Source: a virus (Duplodnaviria; Heunggongvirae; Uroviricota; Caudoviricetes). From it: DNA of 50,015 nt. The position numbers were made by a program, and so were the translations under genes. Shown here in pieces: positions 586-50,015 of this stretch. The DNA lies in the IMG/VR virus record IMGVR_UViG_2917403263_000001; one strand, 5' to 3'. Under the pieces are notes generated by a model, which was not told the DNA's origin, did no database searches, and saw only the letters and a list, made by a program, of their open reading frames with translations. Numbering within the stretch: the stretch's first letter is position 1; every line of letters starts with the position of its first letter.

Positions 586-2656
586 TATGCAATCCTCATG
601 AATAGCGCCACAAACGCCTGATCGCTGTATGTCAGCATGGTGCCTGACATTGCAATGTACGAGCCAGGAAGCGAATGTGAGTTGCAGCCGACAACGTAGA
701 ATCTGGGGGTTGATGCATAAGTGCCTGAAGGATTAAATGGACACTCAATTCCAACTGGCCCCAGACGCGAACCCGGATAAGACTGTCTTCTGACAACCTT
801 TATATTTTTATCACCGTCAGCAGTTCCCTGATATGCAGCTAATATCAGGCCTCCAATATCGGGGTCACCCCAGTCGTAATTGACGTATGAAAATAGCATG
901 TTACGAACTTTGTTTTTTGTCATGCTAATCTCTTCCCATCCACCTAACGAGCCACCGAAAGTGGAACCGATGAGAACATCCCTATTTATCCCGTAAAAAA
1001 TCAGCAACTTCTTTACTCTGCGAGCATTGCTATAACCATCCCGATTTGTGTTAATCCACAAAACATCGATGATCCCCTCAAAATTCACACTGGATATCGG
1101 CGTGTATCCATTGAATTTATGGTAGTACCTGCCAGGAAGAGCATAATTAGCCCAATTTTCCAGTGCAGAGGCACTATTAAAACTTACACGCCCGTAATAT
1201 TCGTCTTCATACGTGTACCCAAACCCATAAGCGCCAGCCAACGCCAAGACCGAATTCATCATCGCCTTATCGGGCCATGTAAAGGGATTACTGATGACTG
1301 TTTTATTAGCAACCCCCCTGATTTGCAGATTCTCCTGTGCTTTAGCCAGTGCTGACGAGCCAGCATCAACGATTTCCTGAAGGTTGTTTTTTATCTTGAG
1401 ATACCCGCCATCGAGGATATCGTCAATTTCGCCTTTGGCATTCTCTGCTGATTCTGCAGCTGTCGCTGCATCCTGCGCATACTTTTGAGACTGCTGCTCA
1501 TGCAGCTCTGCTTTCTGTGCGTGTTTTTGGGCGTTCTGTTCGCTCAGTGCCGCATTGTCAGAACTTGTTTTTTGAATCTGTGGCACTGAATTCAGAATCC
1601 TTCGCTGCCTGCCGTGCTTGCTTTACCGCGTCCGCGACATCCTGCACACCCTGCTGCACCTGCCCGGCGTTCTGCTCAACTTCTGAAGCCAGTTGTTCAA
1701 CATATTGCTTATCTTTGGCAGCCGCGTCAGCGTTCTGTTGCACGTTATTCGCCAGCGTCTGGCAGTCTTCCTTTATCTTCTGTGCATCGGCTGCGTGTTG
1801 CCCTGCCAGTCGCTCGCTTTCCGCTGCTGCATCCTGACTATTTTTCGCCGCCGTTTCGCTGGTTTTGGCATTCGTTTCACTGGTTTTTGCTGCCGTCTGG
1901 CTGGACTTTGCGTTGGTTTTCGCTCGTCTTTGCTGCTTTCTGGCTGTTAGCCGCAGCAGTTTCTGATCCAGCTGCCGATGTCGCAGAACCGGCTGCCGCG
2001 CTCTCGCTTGCTTCCGCTGCATCCTGGCTGTTTTTCGCCGCAGTTTCACTGGCTTTGGCATTCGTTTCGCTGTCTTTTGCTGCCGTCTGGCTCGACTTTG
2101 CTGCTGTCTCGCTATTTTTTGCGTTGGTTTCCGATTTTTTGGCTGCTGTCGCGAAGTTTTCCGATGCAGTCTGTGAGGCCGCTGCTGCCTGTGCGCTGTT
2201 AGCTGCATCCGTTTCTGAGCTTTTCGCCGCGTCCTTCGATGATGCCGCTGCAGTTTCGGATTTCTTTGCCTCTGCTGCGCTCTGAGAGGCGGCTTCAGCG
2301 TTACGCGCAGCTTCGTCCACCATTGCCTCAAAACGGCGCAATGCCTCCGGCATAACATCATCTTCCGTCATGGCACCGAGAAAATCGTTCAGTGTTCCCG
2401 GCCTGGAACCGTCATAGACGGTAATGGTTCCGGCATGTGAAGGCGGAAAACCTTCAACCAGCAGGATAACGCTGTACTGACCATACTCAACATCCATGCT
2501 ATAACGCCCGGCTTCATCCGGATTTTCTGAGGCCACCGTATTCACCACGACTGTGGTGCTGTTACGCTTTGCCTTCAGTTGAATAGTGCAGTTCTGTATT
2601 GGTTTTCCCGCACCATCTTTCAGTACACCTGAGATTTTTACTGCTGCCATATCCAC
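585..2656 (-). pseudogene. stf: Side tail fibre (lambda Stf-like N-terminus, SETAAK/SETNAK repeat shaft, distinct C-terminal receptor-binding domain); reading frame broken twice
   Basis: The N-terminus MAAVKISGVLKDGAGKPIQNCTIQLKA... matches the lambda Stf pattern. The protein continues across three frames (1877..2656, then the 1558..~1916 part of ORF 1558..2361, then 585..1586). The frame switches sit at a T4 run (1917-1920) and a T6 run (1568-1573). Removing one base at each restores the repeat ...AAKTSETNAKSSQ... and ...DSKTSSDNAAL... Confidence 0.85.
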
Positions 2657-2662
2657 TCCACA

Positions 2663-2692
2663 AAAAAGCCCGCCTGAACCGGCGGGCTGTCA
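2663..2692 (-). terminator. Rho-independent terminator downstream of lom
   Basis: Minus strand reads AGCCCGCC-ggttca-GGCGGGCT followed by TTTTTT. Confidence 0.7.
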
Positions 2693-2714
2693 TAACACTG
2701 TGTTACCCGGCTAA

Positions 2715-3314
2715 TCAGAATTTATAACCGACACCAACGATGAAACCGTCAGTGCGCCAGTCGCCACTGCCGGAACCTTCATAAGCAAGGTCAATGGCCA
2801 CGGATTCGGTCGGGTTAAACTGCACGCCAGCCCCCCACGCCAGAGACGTGTTGCTGTGGCGACCGCCATCACTTCCGGTCAGCACATCGTGCGTTTTCCC
2901 CTTGTTGTCAGCTACGCGGAGATAATCCCCGGAAAACGTCGAAACACGGCTGTAAGCCACACCCGCCATCGCATAAGCACTGAACCATTCATTCACGCGC
3001 ACAGATGGTCCCGCCATCATGCTGAACCAGCGGTTATGCGCTGAATCTTCATGCCAGCGGGTATCGCTGTAACGGGTAATCTGGCGATTCTTGTCTCCTG
3101 CATAGCTGAATGACGTCACCAACCCCAGCGTGTCCGTAAATTCATAACGGTATTTCACGTTAATGCCCTTCAGGTCATCGTTGCCGGGCATATCAGTATG
3201 GGACTGAAGATACCCGCCGCTTAGTGTGGACTGATGCTCTACTGCACTCGCTGGCGTACCAGCGGCGACCAGCCAGACTACTGCAGACAGAATAACAGCA
3301 CATAATTTACGCAT
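2715..3314 (-). CDS. lom: Lom outer-membrane protein (Ail/Lom/OmpX family)
   Basis: 199 aa with a signal peptide, beta-barrel repeats and a terminal GVGYKF; canonical position between J and stf. Confidence 0.9.
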
Positions 3315-3338
3315 AATTACCTCTCGCTTTTCTGCAAT

Positions 3339-3363
3339 AAAAAAGGCGCCATTTCTGGCGCCC
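3339..3363 (-). terminator. Rho-independent terminator downstream of J
   Basis: Minus strand reads GGCGCC-agaaat-GGCGCC followed by TTTTTT. Confidence 0.65.
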
Positions 3364-3383
3364 GTATTGGGGTTATAAATATT

Positions 3384-6300
3384 TCAACGAATACTGATAC
3401 CGGAAGCAGCTTTTTTGGTCACAATCACCGTACAGTCTGTGATGTTACCTGCGCCCCGATTGCCTTTCTGGAAAATCTTAAACTCCAGAGTGACGCTACC
3501 ACCACCACTCGGCATATCAATAACCGCGCTGTAACTACCGGGAATGGCTCCTTTAGTTTCTCTGGATGCGATTAATACGCCGTTTTTACGAACTTCAAAA
3601 CCATAACCCGTGTATCGCGTACCTCCCGGTTTATTACCGCTCCCCGGATCGTCATACGCCACACCGTTAAAAATAATGGGCGGAATAATGATTTGGCGGT
3701 CAAAGTTATGATCATCGTAAATGGTGACTGTAACCGTCCCGCCTGGTGTTTCCGTGTTACCCCACGTACCAGCCTGTTTCGGGAATGATTTGGATACAGT
3801 TTTAACGAAGTCACCTCTGACCTGGTTCGCCTCCAGCATGCCCTTAATCGTACAGTTTTCATTTACCGTGACGTTGTTGAGCGTCCCGGAGTTCGCATTC
3901 ACGTTACCGCTGATATCAGCATTTCTCGCCGTCAGCCGCCCGTCCGGTGTCAGGGAAAATGCCGGAGGATTACCACCGCTGGTAATGGTGGGAGCCGTCA
4001 GATATTTCAGAAACACTTCGTTCATGAATATCTGGTTGCCCTGCGCCACAAACATCGGCGTTTCATTCCCGTTTGCCGGGTCAATAAACGCGATACGGTT
4101 AGCGGCAACCAGGAACTGGCTCAGTTTGCCTTCCTCCGTATCCTCCATGCTGAGGCCAAGCCCCGCGACATAATGCCTGCCGTCTTCGGTCTGCTCAATT
4201 TTGACGCCCCACATGGCATTCCATTTATCGTTGGCGTCTTTCCACTCTTTCGAAAACTCCTCCAGTTTGCTGGCGTTATCCTCCGTCAGCTCGACTTTTT
4301 CCAGCAGCTCTTTACCGAGATGGGATTCGGTTATCTGGCCTTTGAAAAAATCCAGGTAACCTTCGGCATCATCGCTCGCCCGACCGACAGCCTCCACGAA
4401 TGCCGATTTGCCAACGGTGTTCACACTGCGGATATAAAAATAATAATCATGGCCCGGTTTGATATTGATACTGGCAGCTATCCAGTACAGCGCCGTGCCA
4501 AGATAGCGGGCTGCGGTTTCAACCTGCCTGATATCCGCAATCCGCTTTTCCGAGAACCAGAACTCAAACTGTACCGTCGGGTCATAAACGGCAAGATGCG
4601 GCGTTGCGGTTATCTGAAAATAGCCCGGCGTCAGCTCAATCCGCGACGGTGCTGCCGGTGCGGCAATCCGGAACGATACCGACGCCGGATCGCCCTGCTG
4701 CCCCCACGCATTTACTGCCCGGACTGTCAGCGTGTAACGCCCCAGCGCCAGTTGCCTGAAGCGGTATGTGGTTTCCGTCGTCCGGGCTGTGCTGACAAGC
4801 CGCTCACTGCCGTCATCCGCTGCCACGGTCAAGCGAAGCGTAAAGCTCACCCCCTTCACCACCTTCGGCGTGTCCCATCGCGCCAGTACCTGATATTCCC
4901 CGCTGTCTGCGGTGACTTCGGCAGTCAGGTGCTGCACCGCTGGCGGCGTGACACCATTCACCGTGCCACTCTGGTCGCCGTCAAAGTGCGCCCCGTTATC
5001 CACGATGGCCTCTTTTTCCGGCACATGCTGCACGGCGGTGATGGCATACGTGCCGTCGTCGTTCTCACGGATACTCACACAGCGGAACAGGCGCTGACGC
5101 AGCGTCGGCAGCTTCAGCCCCCACACGCTGTATTCGGCAACGCCGTCAGGAACACGGCTCACTTTTACCTTCACGCCGTCGGTGACGGACTGGACCTCCA
5201 CGCTGACCGGATTCCCCTGCCCGTCAACCAGGCTTATCAGCGTGGTGCCGGAGGATGGCAGCGTGATTTCACGGTCGAGCGTCAGCGTCCGGGTCTGGCT
5301 GTTCACCGCCAGCACACGCCCACCGATGCTGATCCCCGCATAGTCATCATCACAGATTTCAATGACATCGCCCGGTACATGGCGAAGCCCTTCTGCGCCC
5401 ACGCTGAAGTCCACGGTCTGCGTTTCCAGCAGCTCCGTTTTAATCAGCCACAGCCCGGCGCGGTGTGCCTGCCCCCGGCTGGTACAGCCAAAGGCATCCA
5501 TCTTCGTGACGTTACGACCGTAACGGAGAATGGCCTGCGTGTCCTCCACAAGCTCTGTCGCCGTCTCCCAGCCGTTATCCGGGTCAATCCAGTTCACCTC
5601 AACGGCATTATGGCGGTCCTTCAGGGCGCTGAAGCTGTAGCGGAACGGCGCGCCATCATCCGGCATCACCACATTACTGTGGTTATAGGTCCACACCTTA
5701 TCCGACGGTCGGTCCTGCACGAACGTCAGCGTCTGCCCGTTCCATACCGGCATACAGCGCATCGCCGAGCAGAAATCACTGAGAACATCCCACGCCTTAC
5801 GCTGTGTGGTCAGGTAAGCGTTACAGGTGATGCGCGGCTCCGTGCCACCAAAGCCGTCCGACACTGACTGGTCGCAATACTGGCCGATGACATACAACGC
5901 CCATTTATCCACATCCGCCGCACCAAGACGTTTCCCCATGCCGTAGCGCGGGTGGGTCAGCATATCCCACAGACACCAGGCCATATTGTCGCTGTATGCT
6001 GGCTTAAACGTTCCGTCCCAGATACCGCTGTATTGCCGCGTCTGCGGGTTATAGTTCGACGGCACCTGCAGAATGCGCCCGCGAAGATGATAATTACGGC
6101 TCACCTGCTGGCTGCCGAACTGCTCCGAATCCACCTGCACGCCGACCAGTGCCGTGTTCGGGTAGCACTGTTTCACATCGATGATTTCGGTGTATGACGA
6201 CCAGAGCGTTTTGTTCTGCAGCTGGTCTGTGGTGCTGTCCGGCGTCATCCTGCGCATCCGGATATTGAACGGGCGCGGCGGCAGGTTATCCACCACCACC

Positions 6301-6797
6301 GAGGCCAGATACTGCGAGGTGGTTTTGCCCTTAATGGTGATGTCTTTTTCCGTCACCCAGCCACCGTTACGCTGTATCTGAACCAGCAGGCGGACTTCCG
6401 ACGGATTCCGGTCCCCCTTTGAAGTGGTTTCCACCAGTGCCTGCACACCGAAGGTAAAGCGCAGACGGTCGATATTTGCAGACGTGATAGTCCGGGTGAT
6501 CGGCGTGTCGTATTTCACTTCCGTACCCAGTACCGTCTCGGAACCTGATGATTCAAATCCCTCCGGCGGTGACTGCTCCTGCTCACCTGCCCGGAACACC
6601 ACCGTGACACCGGAGATGTTGGTATTTCCCTCACTGTCCAGCACTGGCGTACTGTTCAGTAGCACGCTTTTTAATCCATCCACCGGACCTTCAATCGGCC
6701 CTTCGCTGATGGCATCGATCACACTCAGCAACTGCGTTGATTTGAGATTATCCTTCGCTTCGCGCGGGGTATGCCCCTTACTGCTGCCTTTACCCAT
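3384..6797 (-). CDS. J: Tail tip / host-specificity protein J
   Basis: 1137 aa, collinear with lambda gpJ ([21 protein letters not shown]...); position after I. Confidence 0.95.
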
Positions 6798-6857
6798 TTC
6801 TCAGACCCCATAAACGACAAAACCGCCCGGAGGCGGTTTCACATAAAACATTTTGCA

Positions 6858-7505
6858 TCAGCGACCAATCACCACAACCTGACCACCATCCCCTTCATCT
6901 GCTGTGCTGATCTCCTGAGATACCACACGTGACCCCACGCGCATTTCACCGTACAGAACAGGCAGAACATTACCCTGGGCAACCATGTTATCCAGAGAGG
7001 AGAAATAGGTGTTCTGCTTACCGTTATCCGTTGTCTGTGTGCGGGGAGTTCTGGGTTTAGGAGCCAGCATCTGGGCCACACCGCCAAGGATCATACTGGC
7101 CCCCGCACTATACATTCCTGTAATTGCTGTCGCTCCCAGCCAACCTGCGGGGTTCCACCACGCCACCGCAATCAGCGCCGCCCCCAGCACCGCCTGAAAC
7201 ACGCCGCCACTTTTGGCACCGGTCAGACGCGGTACGATGTGGATGACGGCACCATTCGCCAGCGGCTCATTAAGACGGGCTGATAATTCCGTTTCACCTG
7301 CATCGCGCCCGGCAATGCGTACCTGATACCAGCCGTCGCTCAGTTTCTGACGAAACGCAGGGAGCTGCGTGGCCAGCGCCCGGATGGCTTCGGCTCCCGT
7401 TTTCACACGAAGGTCGATGCGGCGGCCAAATCGTTGCAAATCCCCGTAAAGGCAGATGCGTGCCATGCCCGGTGACGCCAGAGGGAGTGTGTGCGTCGCT
7501 GCCAT
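6858..7505 (-). CDS. I: Tail assembly protein I
   Basis: 215 aa; MAATHTLPLASPGMARICLYGDLQRFGRRIDLRVKTGAEAIRAL... matches the lambda gpI pattern. Confidence 0.9.
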   Translation of the reverse strand: MAATHTLPLASPGMARICLYGDLQRFGRRIDLRVKTGAEAIRALATQLPAFRQKLSDGWYQVRIAGRDAGETELSARLNEPLANGAVIHIVPRLTGAKSGGVFQAVLGAALIAVAWWNPAGWLGATAITGMYSAGASMILGGVAQMLAPKPRTPRTQTTDNGKQNTYFSSLDNMVAQGNVLPVLYGEMRVGSRVVSQEISTADEGDGGQVVVIGR

Positions 7506-8146
7506 TTGTCGGTATACCTCTCTCGTTTGCTCAGTTGTTCAGGAATATGGTGCAACAGCTCGCCGTCGCCGCAGTAAATGGCGGCATGATTCGGCACCGA
7601 TGAACCAAAACAGCACAGCAGCACATCGCCCGGCTGCGCCGATGACAACGGCACCTGATACAGCCCTGTGGCCTCCAGATTATCCAGATAGAGATTCTGA
7701 CCGTGACGCCACCAGTCATCCCCGCGATGAAAATCCGGCATCTCAATCCCCGCCAGATGATAAGCATCCCGGAACAGTGTGTAACAGTCCGTCACCCCGT
7801 GCTCAAAGCGCCGCCCGGTGAGATGCGGCACACAGCGGAACTTATGAATCGCCCCCCGGCAGACCAGCCACCACGGCAAATCACTCTGCACCTGCAGCCG
7901 CCGGTCGGCCTCACTCAGCCAGGGCAGACCACCGGGATGACTGTGGACCAGCGCCACAATCTCACCCTGCATCTCTGCCTGCAGCCAGTCCTCCGGAGCC
8001 ATCCGGAAATAATCCTCCGGCTCACCGGAAATATTCACGCAGGGAAAATATCTTTCCCCTTCCGGCGTTCTCACCACGAAGCCGCACGACTCCGCTGGCG
8101 CACATCGCCGGGCGTGCGCCAGAATCGCTGATTCTGTCTCTGTCAT
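7403..8146 (-). CDS. K: Tail assembly protein K (MPN/JAB plus NlpC/P60 domains)
   Basis: Lambda gpK-like sequence ending ...THSLWRHRAWHASAFTGICNDLAAASTFV; start chosen at MTETESAIL, which overlaps the end of L. Confidence 0.85.
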   Translation of the reverse strand: MTETESAILAHARRCAPAESCGFVVRTPEGERYFPCVNISGEPEDYFRMAPEDWLQAEMQGEIVALVHSHPGGLPWLSEADRRLQVQSDLPWWLVCRGAIHKFRCVPHLTGRRFEHGVTDCYTLFRDAYHLAGIEMPDFHRGDDWWRHGQNLYLDNLEATGLYQVPLSSAQPGDVLLCCFGSSVPNHAAIYCGDGELLHHIPEQLSKRERYTDKWQRRTHSLWRHRAWHASAFTGICNDLAAASTFV

Positions 8147-8150
8147 GGGA

Positions 8151-8849
8151 TTACTGCGAAAGTTTGTTAATGGAAAGGAAGCCGCCAAAGTTGCCGACGT
8201 TATTGCGAAACTTACAGCCGCTCAGGCATTTGCTGCATTTATCCTTCGTGATATCGGACGTCGGCTGGTCATATTCATCCGCGACAGCCGGACCGTTATA
8301 ACCGCACTCATCACCGCGATAGCTCCAGGTGCAGGTGTTGGCCAGCATGATACGCCCCGGAAAAACAGCACCATCCGTTTCCGTCGGTGTGGACAACACA
8401 AAGGAGGCACTGACCGCACTCAGTTCGCTGCACTGCTCGATGCGCCAGCGGCTGATCACCTCCTGCTCCGGATCGGCGTCGCTGTTTCCGTTGACGAAGT
8501 TCACCGCATCCAGAAAACGGGCGTAAACCTTACGCCTGACCACCGTTCCGCCGACCAGACTCTGTAAATCCTCCACCATCCCGGTGACCATGCCGTGCAG
8601 GTTAGATACTTTCAGTGTTGGCCTTGCACTGGCACCTTTGCCGTTCATCTCAAATCCACCCCCCTGAATGGGATAGGCCTGATACTGCCGACTCTGCCAG
8701 GTGACAGACTCACCTTTTTCATTCTGCTCATTGCAGAAAAAGTAGCGATCCCCGCCTACCTCTGTCAGGTCGATTTCCCAGAGCACCACGCTGGCCGACT
8801 GCTCCGCCCGAATGCATTCATTCAGTGTTTCCTGTTGTATGTCCTGCAT
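8151..8849 (-). CDS. L: Minor tail protein L
   Basis: 232 aa, the same length and pattern as lambda gpL; start overlaps the restored stop of M (TGATG). Confidence 0.9.
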   Translation of the reverse strand: MQDIQQETLNECIRAEQSASVVLWEIDLTEVGGDRYFFCNEQNEKGESVTWQSRQYQAYPIQGGGFEMNGKGASARPTLKVSNLHGMVTGMVEDLQSLVGGTVVRRKVYARFLDAVNFVNGNSDADPEQEVISRWRIEQCSELSAVSASFVLSTPTETDGAVFPGRIMLANTCTWSYRGDECGYNGPAVADEYDQPTSDITKDKCSKCLSGCKFRNNVGNFGGFLSINKLSQ

Positions 8850-9188
8850 CAGATCACCACTTCGTCAAACTGACACGAAAAATCGGTATAGGTGATATGT
8901 TCTGTCGCTGACCACGTTCGACACACCACTCTGATTTTTCTGTTAATACCCGGCGGGCGCCAAAAAAAAAGATTTATAGCCTTCATGCCGGGCTAAAAAT
9001 TTTTCAAATGAATCACGTTCATTCGCCTCAACTTTGAAATCACAGGTGAAAACGCGCAGAGAATGATTAAGTCCATTTGGACTTCGTTGCTCATAACCAT
9101 CGCCAAATCTTACAGTTTTTATCGATGGTTTATTTTCTGTTTTCATTCCATCCTCTGGTAACCAGTGAAATTCTTCCGTATTAGCCAC
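8849..9188 (-). pseudogene. M: Minor tail protein M, truncated by a frameshift in an A9 run
   Basis: The 81-aa ORF stops after ...GYKSFFLAPAGY. Dropping one base of the A9 run at 8962-8970 gives ...GYKSFFWRPPGINRKIRVVCRTWSATEHITYTDFSCQFDEVVI, which resembles the lambda gpM C-terminus and ends exactly at the L start. Confidence 0.8.
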
Positions 9189-12414: not shown

Positions 12415-12433
12415 TTAGTTATTCCGGACAAAT

Positions 12434-12459
12434 AAAAAGCCCCGCTTGGGAAGCGGGGC
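12434..12459 (-). terminator. Rho-independent terminator of the OMP moron
   Basis: Minus strand reads GCCCCGCTT-ccc-AAGCGGGGC followed by TTTTTATTT. Confidence 0.75.
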
Positions 12460-12483
12460 CAGACAACAGAGGGGCGTGACTTA

Positions 12484-38495: not shown

Positions 38496-38529
38496 TAAAA
38501 TTTCCTCCCGGTAAAAATTACTTCTCAAC

Positions 38530-39997: not shown

Positions 39998-40060
39998 AAT
40001 TGCCCCGTATGATGCTGCCCGGTGGCTTAGAATAAGCACAACCAGCATGGAAACTTTTGC

Positions 40061-40685: not shown

Positions 40686-40708
40686 CTTTAAGCATCAAAG
40701 CCCCCTTT

Positions 40709-40726
40709 TGTTAGATATTTCTAACA
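40709..40726. promoter_or_regulatory. Operator, perfect palindrome TGTTAGA-tatt-TCTAACA
   Basis: Lies in the divergent cro-like/repressor intergenic region. Confidence 0.65.
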
Positions 40727-40775
40727 GTAATGTGCGCGGGATATCTAAGTCAAGAAAAATTAGAATTACCTAACT

Positions 40776-41183
40776 ATGGATACAAGAACCCTAGGCCAGC
40801 GAGTTCTGGCACGACGAAAAGAATTACGCCTAACACAACGAGAAGCTGCACGCCTCGCTGGGGTAGCTCACGTCACAATTTCGCAATGGGAAAGAGACGA
40901 AACCCAACCAGTCGGGAAGCGGTTGTTTGCTTTAGCGGATGCGCTGAAGTGCTCGCCTACATGGCTAATGTTTGGTGACGAAGACAAGGCACCAGTACCA
41001 GCACAAGAACTTCATGTGGAAACCGAGTTAACTCCCAACCACAAAGAATTGATCGAATTATTCGATGCTCTTCCATCCTCCGAGCAGGAAGCCTTGCTGT
41101 CTGAAATGCGCGCAAGAGTAGAGAATTTCAATAAACTCTTCGAAGAAATGCTTAAAGCGCGTAAAAACAAATCAATAAAATAA
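40776..41183 (+). CDS. Prophage repressor, DicA-like (XRE HTH, no S24 peptidase domain)
   Basis: 135 aa; LRLTQREAARLAGVAHVTISQWERDETQP...CSPTWLMFGDEDK...RARVENFNKLFEEMLKARK resembles DicA along its length. Confidence 0.85.
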   Translation: MDTRTLGQRVLARRKELRLTQREAARLAGVAHVTISQWERDETQPVGKRLFALADALKCSPTWLMFGDEDKAPVPAQELHVETELTPNHKELIELFDALPSSEQEALLSEMRARVENFNKLFEEMLKARKNKSIK

Positions 41184-41219
41184 CATCCTTTTCAGTTGCT
41201 TAGATTCTCCCACCCTTTT

Positions 41220-41237
41220 TGTTAGACTGATCTAACA
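41220..41237. promoter_or_regulatory. Operator, perfect palindrome TGTTAGA-ctga-TCTAACA
   Basis: Downstream of the repressor gene; shares the CCCTTTTTGTTAGA left flank with the 40709 site. Confidence 0.6.
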
Positions 41238-41255
41238 AAAAACACTTGCCATATT

Positions 41256-41273
41256 TGTTAGGTTATTCTAAAT
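41256..41273. promoter_or_regulatory. Degenerate operator TGTTAGG-ttat-TCTAAAT
   Basis: Lies 18 bp after the 41220 operator. Confidence 0.4.
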
Positions 41274-41346
41274 TACTCTCCATCAAGACACCGCACGGTG
41301 TTCTCAGCAAACAGTTCCGCCACCCGGCGTTAAGGGGAGAGATAAG

Positions 41347-41481
41347 ATGGAGCATTACGAAGTAGTTCAGTATTTGATGGATTGTTGCGGTATCACTTAC
41401 AACCAAGCTGTACAGGCTCTACGCAGGAACGACTGGGATCTCTGGCAAGCTGAAGCCTCTATCCGCAGCAACAAGATGTAA
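41347..41481 (+). CDS. ydaG: 44-aa protein, YdaG-like (not in the track)
   Basis: ATG after GGGGAGAG; MEHYEVVQYLMDCCGITYNQAVQALRRNDWDLWQAEASIRSNKM; Rac synteny. Confidence 0.5.
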   Translation: MEHYEVVQYLMDCCGITYNQAVQALRRNDWDLWQAEASIRSNKM

Positions 41482-41491
41482 GGTCAGCAAA

Positions 41492-41647
41492 ATGCAAAAA
41501 ATCGACCTCGGCAACAACGAATCTCTGGTATGTGGCGTGTTCCCAAACCATGACGGCACGTTCACCGCTATGACGTATACCAAAAGCAAAACGTTTAAAA
41601 CCGAAGCTGGCGCGCGTCGATGGTTGGAGAAGCACACAGTAAGCTAA
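41492..41647 (+). CDS. ydaF: 51-aa protein, YdaF-like (not in the track)
   Basis: MQKIDLGNNESLVCGVFPNHDGTFTAMTYTKSKTFKTEAGARRWLEKHTVS; Rac synteny next to sieB. Confidence 0.5.
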   Translation: MQKIDLGNNESLVCGVFPNHDGTFTAMTYTKSKTFKTEAGARRWLEKHTVS

Positions 41648-42132
41648 CGATTAAAACGCCTACTCCTGCTGTTCCAGAATAACTTCATAAAGTGGGAGTA
41701 TTTTTCGGTGACGAGATAATAAGAACAGTTTGCGCTATCACTCTGATGTTGAATGATGCCCTTCCGTTCTAATTTTTTCATAACCGGGTTACGGCAAGGA
41801 GAAGTGATAATAAGATTTCCTGTTTTAAGGAAATCTTTAAATACAGAGATTTCTTCCTCTGATAAACGAAGCAATACTCGTTGCTCTGGTAGCAATGAAT
41901 AATGCTTTTGAATATGCGCTCGCAATCTTGAGAAGGAAATAGCGACCACGAAAGAAAAGGCAAAAGCGATAATCTGAAAGAGCCAGGGTATTTCAGTATA
42001 AGCATTGAATGCGACAGCAAACTCTTTCGGTATCAACCAGAGAGTGAGGCCGAAAATGATAATCGTGTACATAAGTCTTTCGAGTGGCTCGTTAGCAAAA
42101 AGTTTCAACAATGGAGTAAATACATCCAACAT
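41644..42132 (-). CDS. sieB: Superinfection exclusion protein B
   Basis: 162 aa from MLDVFTPLLKLFANEPLERLMYTIIIFGLTLWLIPKEF...; matches my recollection of Rac SieB. Confidence 0.85.
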   Translation of the reverse strand: MLDVFTPLLKLFANEPLERLMYTIIIFGLTLWLIPKEFAVAFNAYTEIPWLFQIIAFAFSFVVAISFSRLRAHIQKHYSLLPEQRVLLRLSEEEISVFKDFLKTGNLIITSPCRNPVMKKLERKGIIQHQSDSANCSYYLVTEKYSHFMKLFWNSRSRRFNR

Positions 42133-42350
42133 ATCAATAACTCTCGACTGTAAGGGTATTGAAATGTTAACACAAGCTCTCGCTGTAGGGGTATAGCAGA
42201 GACCACCGAAGCCCGGAGGTGGTGAAATAAAACCGGGCGCAACACGAAGGCGCATTTCCGATATCCATAAAGAGTCGGTCTTGTCTGTTAAATTTAAATG
42301 GTTGGAGTGCGCCTCCGGTTGTGAATAACAACACTGCTGTGTGTAGTCTT

Positions 42351-42397
42351 GGCGGCATCAGTTTTTTCTTGAAGTTCGACTGATGTCCGCCCTTTTT
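42351..42397 (+). terminator. Strong intrinsic terminator in the early-left transcription unit
   Basis: GGCGGCATCAGT - 16-nt loop - ACTGATGTCCGCC followed by CTTTTT. Confidence 0.65.
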
Positions 42398-42575
42398 AAA
42401 GTGAATTTTGTGATGCGGTGAATGCGGCTAAGCGGACGCGGCACAGTTAAAAGTCATGTTAGTCCTTATTGGTTTGGGTGGGAAAGCCGACTGTAATTGT
42501 TAACTGGTTGCAGTCACCTGGAGGCACCAGGCACCGCATCAACAAAGTTCATTTAGTAACCAGGAAGGGAATTAT

Positions 42576-42848
42576 ATGCAAGAGATAAGTTTTGAAGTAA
42601 CAGCAAAAGATGTACAGGTTAAGCCCGATTACAATCAAAAATTATGTATTGAAGTCAATGGCGTGAAGTTATCAGACCTGATTGATTCAGTTGAAGATAA
42701 CGACGCTATTATTGAAATGGTTGGAGCCGAAGAAATAGCAGAATATTTTTCAACAGAGGGGCGTCTTCATGAGCTTCTGGAAAAATTTTCATATCAGGAT
42801 ATCGCTACATTTCTGGAAATTAATGGTTATAAAGTTACCGAGGAATAA
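42576..42848 (+). CDS. Acidic 90-aa protein, function unknown
   Basis: ATG after AGGAAGGGA; rich in D and E; first gene after the terminator. Confidence 0.6.
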   Translation: MQEISFEVTAKDVQVKPDYNQKLCIEVNGVKLSDLIDSVEDNDAIIEMVGAEEIAEYFSTEGRLHELLEKFSYQDIATFLEINGYKVTEE

Positions 42849-42866
42849 AGTAGCTCAGGTGGCGTT

Positions 42867-43076
42867 ATGGAACGTAATCATCTAACAGCTATCAGTGCCG
42901 CACAGAGTAAATTCGCCATCGCTGTATTTTTACAGGATGAAGAAATGTTTGAGCAGGCCATTATTCAGTTTGCAATTGCGACCGGGAGTAAAATAAATGA
43001 ACACTTTGTTCGCTCTTGTCATGACCGTTTTTCTGACATCAGGCGAAACTCAGGATGTTGTTACCGGAATTTATAA
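42867..43076 (+). CDS. Hypothetical 69-aa protein (3-prime end uncertain)
   Basis: ORF overlaps the next gene by 80 nt. Confidence 0.4.
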   Translation: MERNHLTAISAAQSKFAIAVFLQDEEMFEQAIIQFAIATGSKINEHFVRSCHDRFSDIRRNSGCCYRNL

Positions 43077-43233
43077 CTCCGAACCTGAATGCAAGGCCGC
43101 AGCTATTGAGCAAAAAGTAGCTGGCGAATGTTTCCCTGTTGAGAAATTTATCCGGCCTGTAAATGAAGAAATTCCCGCAGGCCTCACAGGAGAAAATCAT
43201 GAAAATAAAATGTGCTTACCACCTTTGCAATAA
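42997..43233 (+). CDS. Small protein with an N-terminal signal/TM segment (DUF1482-like)
   Basis: MNTLFALVMTVFLTSGETQDVVTGIYNSEPECKAAA... Confidence 0.5.
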   Translation: MNTLFALVMTVFLTSGETQDVVTGIYNSEPECKAAAIEQKVAGECFPVEKFIRPVNEEIPAGLTGENHENKMCLPPLQ

Positions 43234-43363
43234 AGAAGTTGAAGAAAGCAAAACTATTACAAGACCACTTCATTTCATGCGTGGAGTTATCCCAACGACG
43301 GAAATGAAAAAATATTGTAGTGAAATCTGTGCCGAAAAAGACCAGATGGCACACGAACTTTAA
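43199..43363 (+). CDS. ydaE: YdaE-like Cys-rich small protein
   Basis: 54 aa from MKIKCAYHLCNKEVEESK...YCSEICAEKDQMAHEL after AGGAG; Rac synteny upstream of racC. Confidence 0.55.
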   Translation: MKIKCAYHLCNKEVEESKTITRPLHFMRGVIPTTEMKKYCSEICAEKDQMAHEL

Positions 43364-43437
43364 TTAACTGACTATTCGAAAATGAATTTATGCCAGCAAT
43401 GGCAGGGATTCGCTCAACCTTAATTAAGGAGAAAAAC

Positions 43438-43714
43438 ATGATTACCAATTATGAAGTCACTGTTGTAACTACCGATGACATTGTTCACGAGGTTAATCTG
43501 GAAGGAAAGCGTATTGGCTACGTGATTAAAACAGGAAATAAAGAAACCCCATTCACTGTGGTTGATATCGACGGTCCATCAGGCAACGTAAAAACACTTG
43601 ATGAAGGTGTCACAAAAATGTGCCTGGTTCACATCGGAAAGAATCTGCCCGCAGAAAAAAAAAGCCGGATTTCTGGCAACTCTGATTGCAATGAAATTAA
43701 ACGGTGAAATCTGA
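43438..43714 (+). pseudogene. racC: RacC, C-terminus altered by an extra base in an A9 run
   Basis: MITNYEVTVVTTDDIVHEVNLEGKRIGYVIKTGNKETPFTVVDIDGPSGNVKTLDEG... The present frame ends ...AEKKSRISGNSDCNEIKR at 43707. With A8 (run at 43655-43663) it reads ...AEKKAGFLATLIAMKLNGEI and stops at 43714. Confidence 0.75.
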
Positions 43715-43815
43715 AAGAAATAGCCTGCGTATGGCGCAGGCTATGAACAGTGTGTATCCGGCAAGATCATTCACTGAACAAAACGAATTTTAATCTGAGT
43801 TGAGGTTAAAAAACA

Positions 43816-46800
43816 ATGAGCACAAAACCACTTTTCCTGTTACGGAAAGCGAAAAAATCATCCGGTGAACCTGACGTCGTCCTCTGGGCAAGCGACGATT
43901 TTGAATCGACCTGTGCCACTCTGGACTACCTGCTCGTTAAGTCAGGTAAAAAACTGAGCAGCTATTTTAAACATGTTGCCACGAATTTTCCTGTCGTTAA
44001 TGACCTTCCCCCTGAAGGTGAGATCGATTTTACCTGGAGTGAACGCTATCAACTCAGCAAAGACTCCATGACCTGGGAACTAAAACCAGGAACAGCGCCA
44101 GACGACGTTCACCATCAGGAGAATGCACCGGAAACCGAAGAACCGGCGGGAGGCCAGGAAGAAAACACACGGGCAGACGCTCACGGGGATTGCCAGGATT
44201 GCGAAGTATCTGTATCTACTTTGCGGTTCACACAGCGTCTTCTGCACATTTTTACCTATGCGGCCGGGGATCGGAAATACCTGCATCATGCCACCCGAGA
44301 ACAACGCGAACACATTACTGCTCTTGAGATGGATCAGGAAAACAGCTATGTCCAGAATCTGCTGTTGGCCATACGCGGCATGGCAGAACCGACAACTCTG
44401 GATAATGCCGCCCTGCTCCGCCTGACTGATGCAATTAAGGCAGTTTTCTCTATCACGAAAAAACATCAGCCCTATGAATTTAAGAATTTCATTTCAGCCT
44501 GGCTGGATACCGAACACATTGATCGCGGTCTTCTGACAAAAGAATGGCAAAAAGGGAATCGTGTTTCACGCATCACTCGCACGGCTTCCGGTGCTAATGC
44601 TGGCGGCGGGAACCTCACCGATCGCGGCGAAGGTTTCGTCCATGATCTGACGTCACTGGCGCGCGATGTAGCCACTGGCGTACTGGCCCGTTCAATGGAC
44701 GTGGACATCTATAACCTTCATCCGGCACACGCGAAACGCATTGAGGAAATTATCGCTGAAAATAAACCGCCCTTTTCTGTTTTCCGCGACAAATTCATCA
44801 CCATGCCTGGCGGGCTGGATTATTCACGCGCCATCGTGGTTGCGTCCGTGAAAGAAGCACCAATTGGGATCGAGGTCATCCCCGCGCACGTCACTGAATA
44901 TCTGAACAAAGTACTGACTGAAACCGATCATGCCAACCCTGATCCGGAAATCGTGGATATTGCCTGCGGTCGCTCCTCTGCCCCGATGCCGCAGCGTGTA
45001 ACAGAAGAAGGAAAACAGGATGATGAAGAAAAACCACAACCAACTGGAACAACGGCAGATGAACAGGGAGAGGCTGAAACAATGGAACCGGACGCAACTG
45101 AACATCATCAGGACACGCAGCCGCTGGATGCTCAGTCACAGGTAAATTCTGTTGATGCGAAATATCAGGAACTGCGGGCAGAACTCCATGAAGCCCGGAA
45201 AAACATTCCATCAAAAAATCCTGTCGATGCCGATAAATTGCTTGCTGCATCACGTGGTGAATTTGTTGACGGAATTAGCGACCCGAACGATCCGAAATGG
45301 GTTAAGGGGATCCAGACTCGCGATTCTGTGTACCAGAACCAGCCAGAAACGGAACAAAACACGCCAGAAACTGAAAAAACCAGCCCGGATGTGAAACAAC
45401 CAGAGCCAGTAGTGCAACAGGAACCGGAGAAAGTCTGCAATGTCTGTGGCAAGACTGGCGGGGATAACTGCCCTGACTGTGGTGCGGTGATGGGCGACGC
45501 AACATACCAGGAAACATTCGATGAAGAGAATCAGGTTGAAGCTAAGGAAAAAGATCCGGTGGAAATGGAAGGCGCTGAACATCCGCACAATGAGAATGCT
45601 GGCAGCGATCCGCATCGTGATTGCAGTGATGAAACTGGTGAAGCGTCAGCTCCTGTAGCAACTGAAATCATGTGGCCGTCATATTTCGAGCCTGGCCGCT
45701 ATGAAAACCTCCCGAACGAGGTTTATCACTCCGCCAACGGAATAAGCAGCACGATGCTGAAGGATGCCCGTATCAGCCTGATGTATTACCACGGACGGCA
45801 CATTACCGGAACTATTCCGAACGAGGAAAGTGATGCACTGCTGCGTGGGCGGATCATTCACAGCTATGTTCTGGAAACGGATAAATTCGCTGATGAATAT
45901 GCCATTCCGGTACCGGTTCCTGAATATGTGGTTACTACTTCTAACGAACTGATCGCCATCATTAAAAAACACAATGCCAGTCTGCCAGCACTGATGACAC
46001 CAGAGCAGATGAAAGAGTGGATCGAAAGCTACAACAGCACTCTTATACAGCCACTGTCTGTAAGTGCCGGGGCCGAAGAAACAGGCATCCTTTACGGTTC
46101 GCTTCCGGTGGAATTTCGGCGTATTCCTGAGGGGGAAAAACACACAGCATCAGCAATGAAAGCCTGTATTAAAGAATACAACGCAAGCCTCCCTCCTCTG
46201 TTGAAAACCAGTGGAGCACGGGAGCAGCTTCTGGATCAAATTGAAACTGTAGACCCAGAACTGGCAAAAAAAGAACGTGCTAAATCTTTGCCTTACAACA
46301 TCAGTGGCACAAAAGAGCAATTAACCGAAATCGCACGGAAAATTCGCCCGGAACTGGTGACACTGGAGGACTGGCAAAAACGCCAGCAAGAAGAAAATGC
46401 CGGGAAAACGTTTATCAGTCCGGATATGTATGAACAGGCAAAAAATATTCACGCGGCACTGCAAAACAATACCGATGCAGCAAGGCTACTCAACCACCCG
46501 GATCGCAAATCTGAAATCAGCTATTTCGGGTTTGATGAAGAAACCGGGCTGGAAATCAGGGTCCGTCCTGATATCGAAATCCGGCTGCCATACGAAAGCA
46601 TTTGCGCTGACGTGAAGTCAGTCAGCCTCGGTTATGTGCGACAGGAACGACTTAAAGATCGCCTGCACCGTGAAATTATTGAGCGTGATTATCACCTCAG
46701 CGCCGCAATGTATTGCGATGTGGCAAACCTGGACAAATTTTTCTGGATCTTCGTCAACAAAGATGCTGGCTATCACTGGGTGGCAGTCGTGGAAGCCTCG

Positions 46801-46959
46801 CAGGAACTCCTGGAACTTGGTCGACAGGAATATCGCCGGACGCTACGCCAGATAAACGAAGCCCTGGAGACAAACAACTGGCCAGCACCGATTACCGAAA
46901 GTTATACCGACGAATTAAACGACTTTGATCTTCGTCGTCTTGAAGCACTGAGCATCTGA
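43816..46959 (+). CDS. recE: RecE-type exonuclease VIII (long N-terminal region plus C-terminal PD-(D/E)XK exonuclease)
   Basis: 1047 aa. The N-terminus [26 protein letters not shown]... and the central region match my recollection of Rac RecE. The C-terminal third is a different exonuclease variant. Confidence 0.85.
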
Positions 46960-46970
46960 GGAAGGACACA

Positions 46971-48023
46971 ATGAACGAATTAACTCAACAAGAAAATATT
47001 AACTCTAATGTTGCGGTTTTCAGCCCTCAGTCCCTGGCTGCAATTCAGACATTTTCCCAGGTAATGGCTTCCGGCATGGCTACTGTACCGGAACACCTCC
47101 GGGGAAATCCATCAGACTGCATGGCCATCACCATGCAGGCGATGCAGTGGCAAATGAACCCTTACGCAGTAGCTCAGAAAACTTTCGTTGTGAATGGTGT
47201 GCTCGGATATGAAGCGCAACTGGTTAATGCCGTAATCAGTACTCGTGGGCCGCTAACCGGGCGTATTGAATATGACTGGTTCGGGCCGTGGGAAAAAATT
47301 ATCGGGAAATTTGAAATCAGGAAGAGCGACAAAGGGAAAGAATATCGTGTACCTGGCTGGAAGCTGGCCGATGAAAACGGGATCGGTGTTCGTGTCCAGG
47401 CAACACTACGCGGCGAAAGTAAACCACGCGTACTGGAATTACTTCTGGCGCAGGCCAGAACACGTAACTCAACGCTATGGGCCGACGATCCTCGCCAGCA
47501 GCTTGCCTATCTGGCGCTGAAACGCTGGGCGCGCCTTTATTGCCCCGAAGTGATTCTTGGAGTGTACACCAGGGACGAACTGGACGAGCCACAGGAAAAA
47601 ATCATTAATCCGGTTCAGGAACATAAAAACACTTCCGCTTGCCGCGCGGAACGTGAAACAACAATTATTGAGCAGGATGCCGGGGAAAACTGGATCGATG
47701 CTTTCCGTGAACGTATTGAGCAGGCACAAAGCACCGGGGAAACAACAGCACTTCGCCAGGAAGTGGAAGATCATAAAAATACACTTGGCGCTCTCTATAC
47801 GGAACTTAAAGGAAAAGTGGTTCAGCGTCATCACCGTCTCAATGCTATTGCCCGTATCGAGAAGATGATAAATGACCTACCTTCTTCAGGTGATCCAGAA
47901 GCAGAACAAAAATTTACTGCTCTGGAAAATACGCTGAATGCTGCCCGGCCACATCTGGGTGAATTATATGAGGCGTATAAAACGACACTGACAGATATGA
48001 AACCAGAATATATCGGCTCCTGA
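46971..48023 (+). CDS. Single-strand annealing protein (RecT/Red-beta superfamily)
   Basis: 350 aa immediately after recE; N-terminal core DCMAITMQAMQWQMNPYAVAQKTFVVNGVLGYEAQL fits the RecT/Bet pattern. Confidence 0.75.
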   Translation: MNELTQQENINSNVAVFSPQSLAAIQTFSQVMASGMATVPEHLRGNPSDCMAITMQAMQWQMNPYAVAQKTFVVNGVLGYEAQLVNAVISTRGPLTGRIEYDWFGPWEKIIGKFEIRKSDKGKEYRVPGWKLADENGIGVRVQATLRGESKPRVLELLLAQARTRNSTLWADDPRQQLAYLALKRWARLYCPEVILGVYTRDELDEPQEKIINPVQEHKNTSACRAERETTIIEQDAGENWIDAFRERIEQAQSTGETTALRQEVEDHKNTLGALYTELKGKVVQRHHRLNAIARIEKMINDLPSSGDPEAEQKFTALENTLNAARPHLGELYEAYKTTLTDMKPEYIGS

Positions 48024-48086
48024 TATTGACTTTGGCGGTGTAGCCTCACCGCCATCACAAAATTTTATTTTATGAGAGAAAAGACA

Positions 48087-48281
48087 ATGCGGTATGAAAA
48101 AGTCAAACCATGCCCTTTTTGTGGTTGTCCATCAGTAACGGTGAAAGCCATTTCAGGATATTACCGCGCGAAGTGTAACGGATGCGAATCCCGAACCGGC
48201 TATGGTGGAAGTGAAAAAGAAGCACTCGAACGATGGAATAAACGAACCACTGGAAATAATAATGGAGGTGTTCATGTATAA
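48087..48281 (+). CDS. ralR: RalR / Lar restriction-alleviation protein (type I toxin DNase)
   Basis: MRYEKVKPCPFCGCPSVTVKAISGYYRAKCNGCESRTGYGGSEKEALERWNKRT... matches my recollection of Rac RalR. Confidence 0.8.
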   Translation: MRYEKVKPCPFCGCPSVTVKAISGYYRAKCNGCESRTGYGGSEKEALERWNKRTTGNNNGGVHV

Positions 48282-48462
48282 AATTACCGCCACTATTGAA
48301 AAGGAAGGTGGCACTCCTACTAACTGGACAAGGTACTCAAAAACAAAATTAACCAAATCAGAATGCGAAAAAATGCTCTCAGGTAAAAAAGAAGCAGGCG
48401 TTTCCAGAGAGCAGAAAGTAAAACTGATAAATTTTAATTGCGAGAAAATTCAGTCCTCGTGA
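48274..48462 (+). CDS. ydaC: YdaC (DUF1187)
   Basis: 62 aa from MYKITATIEKEGGTPTNW...; ATG 5 nt after GGAGG; Rac synteny. Confidence 0.6.
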   Translation: MYKITATIEKEGGTPTNWTRYSKTKLTKSECEKMLSGKKEAGVSREQKVKLINFNCEKIQSS

Positions 48463-48561
48463 GTTGCATTGTATTCAAATTAAAACTTCATAGCTGATTA
48501 TTAATAATCAACATCGGGCGTCAATTTCGGTCTAACATTGGCGCCTGCCAGAGGTGATGCG

Positions 48562-48777
48562 ATGGCACAAGTAATCTTTAATGAAGAGTGGATGGTTGAA
48601 TACGGCCTGATGCTTCGCACTGGTCTGGGGGCCAGACAAATTGAAGCATACCGCCAGAACTGTTGGGTGGAAGGCTTCCACTTCAAACGAGTATCTCCTT
48701 TAGGGAAGCCAGACAGTAAGCGAGGGATTATCTGGTACAACTATCCAAAGATAAATCAGTTTATCAAAGACTCATGA
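48562..48777 (+). CDS. xis: Excisionase
   Basis: 71 aa from [46 protein letters not shown]...; ends 1 nt before the int ATG. Confidence 0.75.
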
Positions 48778-48778
48778 T

Positions 48779-50015
48779 ATGTCTAAATTACCAACAGGTG
48801 TCGAGATTCGAGGTAAATACATTCGCATCTGGTTCATGTTTCGAGGAAAACGATGTCGGGAAACATTGAAAGGCTGGGAGGTTACTAACAGTAACATTAA
48901 AAAGGCCGGGAATTTAAGAGCATTGATAGTTCATGAAATCAACTCCGGTGAATTTGAGTATTTAAGACGTTTTCCCCAGTCCAGCACTGGGGCAAAAATG
49001 GTGACAACGAGGGTCATAAAAACGTTCGGGGAGCTTTGTGATATCTGGACAAAAATTAAAGAGACAGAGTTAACAACAAACACAATGAAGAAAACGAAAT
49101 CACAATTAAAAACAACTCAGGATAATAATTTGTGAGAGTACACATATATCACATATTCGTTATAGCGATATCTTAAACTACCGGAATGAACTGCTGCATG
49201 GAGAAACGCTTTACCTGGATAATCCAAGATCCAACAAAAAAGGAAGAACCGTGCGCACAGTTGATAACTATATCGCCCTGCTCTGTTCGTTGTTACGTTT
49301 TGCGTATCAGTCGGGATTTATATCAACCAAACCATTTGAAGGAGTAAAAAAATTACAGCGAAACAGAATAAAGCCTGATCCGTTATCTAAAACAGAATTC
49401 AATGCATTAATGGAAAGTGAAAAAGGACAGAGCCAGAACTTGTGGAAATTTGCCGTTTACTCCGGGCTTCGTCACGGGGAACTGGCTGCTCTGGCGTGGG
49501 AGGATGTGGATTTCGAGAAGGGAATTGTGAATGTCAGAAGAAACCTGACGATACTTGATATGTTCGGTCCCCCAAAAACAAATGCGGGGATCCGGACGGT
49601 AACACTACTACAGCCTGCTCTTGAAGCACTGAAGGAGCAATACAAACTGACCGGGCATCATCGCAAAAGCGAAATCACTTTTTATCATCGGGAGTACGGC
49701 AGAACCGAAAAGCAAAAACTGCATTTTGTTTTCATGCCCAGGATGTGTAACGGAAAACAGAAACCTTATTACTCGGTAAGCAGTTTGGGTGCGAGATGGA
49801 ATGCAGCTGTAAAACGTGCTGGTATTCGCCGCCGTAATCCGTACCATACGCGACATACTTTTGCCTGCTGGCTGTTGACGGCAGGAGCGAACCCGGCATT
49901 TATAGCCAGCCAGATGGGGCATGAAACTGCGCAGATGGTGTATGAAATTTACGGTATGTGGATTGATGACATGAACGACGAACAGGTAGCTATGTTGAAT
50001 GCGCGGTTATCGTAG
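48779..50015 (+). pseudogene. intR: Tyrosine integrase (IntR-like), interrupted by a +1 frameshift near 49108-49133
   Basis: The N-terminal 118-aa ORF stops at 49135. A second frame is open from 49110 (...LRIIICESTHISHIRYSDILNYRNELLHGE...) to 50015 and carries the catalytic R...HxxR...Y region (NPYHTRHTFACWLL...MGHETAQMVYEIY). Total about 411 codons. Confidence 0.85.

Follow-up and report, generated by a model that had tools for sequence, protein, structure and literature searches.

The Rac prophage of Escherichia coli K-12, with its recE, recT, racC, kil, sieB, intR, xisR and ydaY genes, is a truly decayed remnant from which the structural genes have been lost. The element examined here, which fills a window of 50,015 nt (the whole stretch of DNA analysed), is a Rac-like lambdoid prophage at the same ttcA site, with the same early gene set and order (racC-recE-recT-ralR-xis-int, from gene order and Pfam families) but, unlike K-12 Rac, with complete sets of head, tail, lysis and replication genes; in its error-free version no gene is broken, which again sets it apart from the K-12 remnant. 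At its right end it matches E. coli Rac-type prophages with 98.6% identity, and its structural module shares approximately 95–96% nucleotide identity over 81–94% of its length with Salmonella phage SPF_0923 and Escherichia phages vB_EcoS-683R6 and 606R9, all of which have been induced and sequenced and are different mosaics beyond that module. Another described system to which this locus can be compared is technical, namely the homopolymer artefacts of Ion Torrent and 454 draft assemblies, for which RefSeq has the flag 'many frameshifted proteins'. In these, as here, long A/T runs carry one-base length errors and genes are split into adjacent ORFs with no substitutions, and the changes disappear when the isolate is resequenced. 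In the typical artefacts a long run is miscounted, whereas four of the putative errors in the present case would each consist of one base doubled.

Two assemblies of strain E3659

The window corresponds to bases 13522–63536 of PDID01000001.1, with 100% identity at both ends and a single constant offset of 13521, and the host is Escherichia sp. cryptic clade II strain E3659. This draft (PDID00000000) was assembled with MIRA and SPAdes from Ion Torrent single-end reads of 35–400 nt, and its coverage of 40× is the joint lowest among 16 strains (PMC6639607); the platform has a known homopolymer error mode (PMC12046094). A second assembly, NZ_VATQ01, is likewise assigned to Escherichia sp. E3659 (bioRxiv 10.64898/2026.04.29.721553), and in it ttcA follows int. 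VATQ01 spans the entire window, and the two differ by 14 small indels and 0 substitutions; relative to VATQ01, the window carries 12 one-base insertions and two deletions, all of the length changes being of 1–2 nt, and editing the window at these 14 sites gives the exact VATQ01 sequence. Neither an IS element nor a large deletion was found in the window relative to VATQ01. Over 6.6 kb of flanking chromosome the two assemblies do not differ, giving 0 substitutions over 56.6 kb in all; a count of zero indels in the flank is weakly unexpected, although the flank holds a single run of ≥8 nt and hence has little power.

From this comparison, the frameshifts in the window are almost certainly base-calling or consensus errors of a low-coverage Ion Torrent draft. 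The E3659 prophage itself is most likely intact and potentially inducible, as far as function may be predicted from its genes.

Frameshifted genes and intergenic runs

Nine of the differences from VATQ01 are insertions in coding sequence and five are intergenic. The initial annotation, made from the window alone, had described at least seven genes as broken by single-base insertions; all seven sites that it named are present, each with one inserted base by which a gene is split relative to VATQ01, but they fall in six genes, and two further coding sites, at 30255 in a DUF1133/Q-like gene and at 40676 in a cro-like gene, had been missed. Removal of single bases restores family-length stf, M, portal, racC and int products and the T frame, as had been proposed.

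The tail-fibre gene stf (phage_tail_N; 585–2650, minus strand) encodes 687 aa in VATQ01 and is spread over three frames in the window, where the same start gives 257 aa, and 687 aa after base removal. One extra T lies in the predicted run at 1920 (T4 compared with T3 in VATQ01), whereas the other, which had been placed in a T6 run at 1568–1573, is indeed an extra T but is found at 1566 (ACT[T]GTTTTTT, added base in brackets), adjoining that run and outside it. In the minor tail gene M (PF05939; 8849–9188, minus strand), the suspected A9 run at 8962–8970, with its extra base at 8970, shortens the product from 112 to 81 aa; the run is A8 in VATQ01, in both read-based Logan assemblies described below and in two E. 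coli relatives (L001 and L003). The G-like ydaY tail chaperone and the downstream T frame occupy 13212–13889 on the minus strand, and three-frame translations of both versions show that the G part (13530–13889) is intact and that the T frame is broken in the window only, by an extra G at 13446 (GAG[G]CGG). An extra G had been correctly suspected in this region, although in the G3 run at 13441–13443, 3 nt away, and it is missing from VATQ01, from the Logan contig of SRR6148330 (L007), from L006 and from the relatives in E. coli. The portal gene (DUF4055; 20039–21446, minus strand) encodes 468 aa in VATQ01 and is divided into products of 337 and 137 aa by an extra T at 20475 (TT compared with T), within the predicted interval of 20453–20491.

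Of the regulatory and early genes, the DUF1133/Q-like gene (30226–30778, minus strand) has a T9 run at 30247–30255 that is T8 in VATQ01 and in 11 related loci; the insertion at 30255 falls at codon 175 of 183 and alters the last nine codons, giving a product of 181 instead of 183 aa. The P22_Cro-like gene (40467–40695, minus strand) carries an extra A at 40676, in codon 7 of 75, and yields only 31 aa from the true start compared with 75 aa in VATQ01. In the racC-like gene (43438–43714, plus strand), the A9 run noted at 43655–43663 is again A8 in VATQ01, the product having 89 aa with an altered tail in the window and 91 aa in VATQ01; among the related loci this run is A8 in 23, A9 in two (L029 and L051) and A7 in one (L027). 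The intR-type integrase gene (48779–50015, plus strand), of 411 aa in VATQ01, is split into fragments of 118 and 254 aa by an extra A at 49114 (AAC[A]AC; codon 112), inside the predicted interval of 49108–49133, and the short form was found in all 20 of the other loci surveyed. The 118-aa N-terminal fragment had no match on record, because PGAP treats a frameshifted int as a pseudogene. A look-up of the 254-aa C-terminal fragment returned unrelated E. coli loci in which int is called as that fragment, and not PDID01; at least two of these have one-base deletions elsewhere in the gene, and the others have no indel or start inside the gene.

The large genes J, H, terL and recE have unbroken reading frames, as had been stated. 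The further suggestion that the phage could not integrate or excise, package its DNA or build tails fails, since VATQ01 is free of the frameshifts and all of the affected genes are intact in it.

The five intergenic differences are run-length changes in an AT-rich stretch around tRNA-Gly and tRNA-Thr (28285–30125). Three are insertions in the window (T9 compared with T8 in VATQ01 at 28293, A6 compared with A5 at 30062 and T7 compared with T6 at 30119) and two are deletions (T6 compared with T8 at 29215 and A8 compared with A9 at 29373). The uniform direction on which the initial annotation had relied is therefore weakened as an argument, the overall ratio being 12:2 (binomial p = 0.013 for the excess of insertions).

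Sequencing error compared with other explanations

The differences are strongly concentrated by run length: of the ten homopolymers of ≥8 nt, six have another length in VATQ01, whereas among the 36,184 shorter runs eight do (Fisher p = 2e-19), and at four of the insertions a single non-repeated base is doubled. The spectrum, consisting of frameshift-type length changes alone, is unlike that of natural decay. In mutation-accumulation data, the share of indels among all events does not exceed ~21%, even when mismatch repair is lacking, and in the wild type deletions are the commoner indels (PMC5854121); against that indel share, the chance of 14 indels with 0 substitutions is p ~3e-10. Ion Torrent assemblies, on the other hand, are known to contain homopolymer indels that cause frameshifts and are not repeated between runs of one isolate, with adenine runs of up to 9 nt the hardest hit (PMC12046094). 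On this platform a homopolymer is registered as one flow signal; long runs are miscounted, and a lone base is at times called twice. At 40× single-end coverage, some of these miscounts almost certainly became fixed in the MIRA/SPAdes consensus. The true E3659 prophage would accordingly be the VATQ01 version, with all structural, regulatory and recombination genes open. One feature runs in the opposite direction to that reported, as SPAdes assemblies of Ion Torrent data from Listeria show mostly deletions (PMC12046094) and the window has mostly insertions, which may be due to MIRA or to manual finishing.

Read-based Logan contigs, built by a pipeline unrelated to that of VATQ01, gave a further view of the same sites. 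SRR8835201 has the VATQ01 allele at 1566 and 1920 (L020), at 8970 and at 40676 (L048), and SRR6148330 has it at 1566 (L021), at 8970, and at 13446 and 20475 (L007), so that the two read sets, when pooled, agree with VATQ01 at six of the six sites covered. We infer that VATQ01 was built from SRR8835201 and that the Ion Torrent reads of E3659 are those in SRR6148330, a pairing drawn from accession dates and sequence identity because no literature was found on SRR6148330, SRR8835201 or the GCA/GCF numbers. SRR6148330 also has two private one-base deletions, at 5390 in J and at 20551 in the portal gene (A5 to A4), which are in neither NCBI assembly. At eight of the 14 sites the evidence against the window's allele comes solely from VATQ01 and from more distant relatives; among these sites are those in racC (43655) and int (49114), because look-ups with recT, DUF1367 and a 90-aa ORF gave no Logan contigs there, common E. 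coli prophages dominating the results, and a look-up with ydaE returned the two NCBI assemblies only. The other related loci that we fetched have the shorter allele at every site except the racC run. Comparison with close prophages, as the initial annotation had advised, is informative to a point: in complete E. coli genomes the relatives are only 91–96% identical, which makes the insertions visible but does not separate error from mutation.

The inactivating changes are thus not reproducible within the strain, being missing from VATQ01 and from Logan at the six covered sites, and, as far as the public assemblies allow, the shorter runs are those of the better data, the outcome that the initial annotation had named as speaking against real decay. 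It had left the choice between indel error in the assembly and decay by slippage; the contrast of a 40× Ion Torrent draft with the intact VATQ01 strongly supports error and leaves decay unsupported. For decay to be real, the prophage of the 2017 culture would have become cryptic through slippage frameshifts and VATQ01 would represent another, intact subclone. Rac-type prophages do decay in nature, slippage too favours long runs, and both the calling of int as the same 254-aa fragment in other E. coli assemblies and the A7 or A9 racC runs in three others could be read in this way. Nevertheless, we regard this as exceedingly unlikely for a single strain with 0 substitutions in 56.6 kb: the combination of 14 indels with no substitution matches none of the spontaneous spectra that have been measured, whether mismatch repair is active or absent, slippage seldom affects single non-repeated bases, at which four of the insertions lie, and the SRR6148330 assembly shows two indels of its own but not four of the window's insertions. 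Moreover, the density of 0.28 indels per kb would imply more than 1000 events genome-wide in the laboratory history of one strain. A mutator phenotype was rejected, as no transitions were seen, and frameshift mutagens fit poorly both with A/T runs and with the intact copy from the same strain.

The converse reading, in which the window is right and real frameshifts were erased from VATQ01 by reference-guided polishing or frameshift correction, draws on the fact that some polishing tools push assemblies toward reference gene models. Its probability is very low, as five of the differences are intergenic and beyond the reach of a gene-model corrector, the Logan contigs match VATQ01 wherever they cover a site, and the short alleles occur in relatives. 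We give a similarly low weight to a mixed or phase-variable population, in which the A8 runs of M and racC and the T8 run of the Q-like gene would vary in culture and the consensus would have sampled a +1 subpopulation. The six of 14 differences that lie in runs of 8–9 nt are the most slippage-prone targets, and the racC run does occur as A7, A8 and A9 among other assemblies, but the eight differences located in runs no longer than 6 nt, including four at single bases, would be left unexplained, and switching off M, cro or int has no apparent role. In addition, the same tracts are the best-known sites of Ion Torrent error (PMC12046094), and homopolymer errors of long-read sequencing may explain the A7 and A9 variants elsewhere just as well. 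A narrower version has a slim chance of being correct, namely that the A8 run near the 3′-end of racC, and perhaps that of M, are slippage-prone, length-variable contingency switches in Rac-like prophages, a reading suggested because the A7 and A9 racC variants occur in three unrelated assemblies; such switches would account for two to six of the 14 differences at most and would not rescue a decaying prophage.

With sequencing error as the preferred explanation, the biological interest of the element is small, the corrected version being an apparently complete, ordinary Rac-like prophage in Escherichia cryptic clade II. PDID01 (GCA_004745145.1) is unsuitable for calls of gene content, pseudogenes or prophage integrity, for which E3659 is better represented by VATQ01 (GCA_005781135.1). 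Extrapolating from the ~0.28 indels per kb of the window, the draft probably contains many hundreds of false frameshifts genome-wide, and equal caution is due for the sister assemblies of the same project (PDHW–PDIL). Scans that take clustered frameshifted genes as a sign of prophage decay or pseudogenization will give false positives on such records.

A gene overlap and the G/T programmed frameshift

An eighth insertion had been proposed near the 3′-end of the TAGT/GT-A-like gene (24016–24966) on account of a 65-nt overlap with the next ORF. No indel is found in this gene relative to VATQ01 or to the relatives L001 and L003, which are annotated alike, and in VATQ01 the gene and its neighbour are called with a 23-nt overlap. 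The 65-nt figure arises solely because the longest ORF was taken, and the site is, judged from these gene calls, a normal 23-nt gene overlap.

One frameshift in the window is predicted to be genuine. As in the lambda-like G/GT programmed −1 frameshift, a slippery heptamer, A_AAA_AAG, is present at 13536–13542, two codons ahead of the stop of the G-like ydaY gene, and the −1 frame is open in VATQ01 up to the end of T. By these sequence criteria, the G/T programmed frameshift is real and functional, and it neighbours the artefactual insertion at 13446; the latter lies 90 nt downstream of the heptamer and does not belong to the programmed event. Programmed frameshifting as a general cause of the differences was rejected, since it fits only G/T, and there at another site.

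Two assemblies of strain E3659

The J protein of the window was looked up by exact sequence and found to be carried by only two NCBI contigs. The window is 100% identical to PDID01000001.1 with an offset of 13521 that is constant at both ends, indicating that it spans contig positions 13522-63536. The contig belongs to PDID00000000, the draft genome of strain E3659 (Escherichia cryptic clade II), which came from Hong Kong intertidal sediment. Ion Torrent single-end sequencing gave reads of 35-400 nt and a coverage of 40x, tied for the lowest among 16 strains; MIRA and SPAdes were used for assembly, and gaps were then closed manually (PMC6639607). As a 2026 preprint gives NZ_VATQ01000016.1 as the Escherichia sp. 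E3659 genome (bioRxiv 10.64898/2026.04.29.721553), PDID01 and VATQ01 are two assemblies of one strain, and such an identity fits the 0 substitutions between them over the 50 kb prophage and 6.6 kb of chromosome.

VATQ01000006.1 was taken as overlapping pieces covering the whole window, and differs from it by 14 indels and 0 substitutions; applying these 14 edits to the window yields the exact VATQ01 sequence over 1-16795, 12726-33820 and 33808-50006. Twelve are insertions in the window (1566, 1920, 8970, 13446, 20475, 28293, 30062, 30119, 30255, 40676, 43655 and 49114), each a copy of the adjacent base, and the remainder are deletions of 2 nt (29215) and 1 nt (29373). Run length has a strong effect: six of the ten homopolymers of at least 8 nt differ, compared with 8 of the 36,184 runs below that length (p = 2e-19). 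The seven one-base insertions named in the initial annotation are all confirmed, with small shifts in position: the base at 1566 is a T beside the T6 run, and that at 13446 lies 3 nt off the G3 run. The list was nevertheless incomplete, missing the cro-like and Q-like genes and five intergenic differences near tRNA-Gly/tRNA-Thr, and the uniform direction it described becomes 12:2 (p = 0.013) because of the two intergenic deletions. An eighth site, proposed at the TAGT (GT-A-like) gene, shows no indel against VATQ01, in which the region holds genes of 310 and 69 aa with a 23-nt overlap, annotated likewise in the related loci L001 and L003.

The AT-rich 2-kb stretch 28285-30260, from the lysis genes to the Q-like gene, holds 6 of the 14 differences and also half of the ten A/T runs of at least 8 nt. 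tRNA-Gly(tcc) and tRNA-Thr(tgt) lie within it at 29750-29903, and both tRNA genes are untouched.

Effect on the affected genes

In the VATQ01 version every affected gene is open and of a length typical of its family. Translated from the same start codons, the window products shorten from 687 to 257 aa for stf, 112 to 81 aa for M, 468 to 337 aa for portal, 75 to 31 aa for the cro-like gene and 411 to 118 aa for int, with smaller changes in the Q-like DUF1133 gene (183 to 181 aa) and the racC-like gene (91 to 89 aa). J, H, terL and recE, described earlier as intact, are unchanged between the versions.

The G/T region carries a classic slippery heptamer, A_AAA_AAG, at 13536-13542 (minus strand), at the end of the G-like ydaY gene and two codons before its stop. 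It belongs to a natural signal for programmed -1 frameshifting at 13530-13545 (minus strand). In VATQ01 the -1 frame stays open between the heptamer and the end of T; the additional G at 13446 closes this frame in the window approximately 30 codons on and shifts the remainder of T into the G frame. The initial annotation had correctly told the natural frameshift apart from an additional break. The PGAP annotation gives no G-T fusion, listing ydaY and the T ORF individually.

Origin of the indels

We aligned three E. coli relatives, against which the window has one extra base at 1920, 8970, 13446, 20475, 43663 and 49114. In addition, Logan contigs, which an unrelated pipeline builds directly from reads, match VATQ01 at 1566, 1920, 8970 and 40676 (SRR8835201) and at 1566, 8970, 13446 and 20475 (SRR6148330). 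Going by the accession dates, and by the presence of these exact proteins in four data sets only, the Ion Torrent run is probably SRR6148330, and VATQ01 was probably built from SRR8835201. Contig 90 of SRR6148330 carries private one-base deletions in J (5390, CCC to CC) and portal (20551, A5 to A4), which split both genes and are found in neither NCBI assembly, indicating that this read set is itself indel-prone. Across all related loci fetched, the long alleles (those with the extra base) are restricted to the window and PDID01, except for the A-run near the 3'-end of racC (43655-43663). This run is A8 in 23 other loci, A7 in L027 (E. coli CP122872) and A9 in L029 and L051 (JBOCDC01 and DAXPBK01); the A7 and A9 variants may reflect either true slippage or miscounted homopolymers in those assemblies. 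At the racC and int sites the opposing evidence comes from VATQ01 and the relatives only.

The frameshifts are flow-chemistry homopolymer artefacts, a well-known class in draft assemblies, and no real biological feature. Comparisons of the same isolate have shown that Ion Torrent assemblies gain homopolymer indels, and hence frameshifts, that differ between runs, with A runs most often hit, up to 9 nt (PMC12046094). The initial annotation had offered assembly error or a cryptic prophage decaying by slippage; the former was right, and the latter, with its functional consequences for integration, packaging and tail assembly, was wrong. Real decay, with the window as the true sequence, is very unlikely, since indels make up at most ~21% of events in mutation-accumulation experiments, mutS mutants included, and wild-type indels lean to deletions (PMC5854121). 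With the spectrum richest in indels, the probability of 14 indels and 0 substitutions is ~3e-10, and all 14 would have had to revert exactly in the later assembly. That VATQ01 was instead over-corrected and the window is right is contradicted by the Logan contigs, which side with VATQ01, and by the intergenic position of some differences. The insertion excess of the artefacts may stem from MIRA or manual finishing; for SPAdes assemblies of Ion Torrent data, an excess of deletions has been reported instead. For strain E3659, VATQ01 is thus preferable to PDID01, and clusters of frameshifts in sister Ion Torrent drafts should not be trusted.

The underlying prophage and its cargo

ORF layout and similarity searches identify the window as a lambdoid prophage, with the tail, head, terminase, lysis and replication genes on the minus strand and the racC-recE-recT-ralR-xis-int module on the plus strand. 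Many E. coli prophages and induced phages such as SPF_0923 and vB_EcoS-683R6 have ~95-96% identity to its structural module, and Rac-type prophages adjoining ttcA have 98.6% identity to its right end. Once the artefacts are set aside, the element is a lambdoid prophage of Rac-like type which, unlike K-12 Rac, keeps a full gene set, without broken genes in its error-free form; by present evidence it is not a cryptic prophage.

Annotations in 45 data blocks of other E. coli contain the same 254-aa C-terminal integrase fragment that the split leaves in the window. Its causes are mixed among L009-L018 (corresponding to window 48779-50015): a one-base deletion lies at int nt 220 in L009 and nt 210 in L014, and others have no indel, with substitutions presumed; in L015-L018 the match starts only at nt ~350-430, with a contig start nearby. 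Real intR inactivation may be common in other lineages.

In close relatives of this prophage (loci L036, L038, L040, L041 and L045), genes for heat-labile enterotoxin type II (PF01375 Enterotoxin_a and PF06453 LT-IIB) lie between the lysis genes and parB; the matching position in the window, ~26100-27400, has small ORFs only and no toxin cargo. Two Ail/Lom-family outer-membrane protein genes are present on the minus strand, one (2715-3314) at the usual lom place after J and an extra one (12484-13041) flanked by T and the tape-measure gene H, which L001 and L003, both E. coli relatives, lack at that place. Near hok, an accessory pair at 32264-34037 (minus strand) is intact in both assemblies; one member is a 373-aa protein matching HTH_3 and Peptidase_M78 (ImmA/IrrE-like), and the other, of 197 aa, has no Pfam match.
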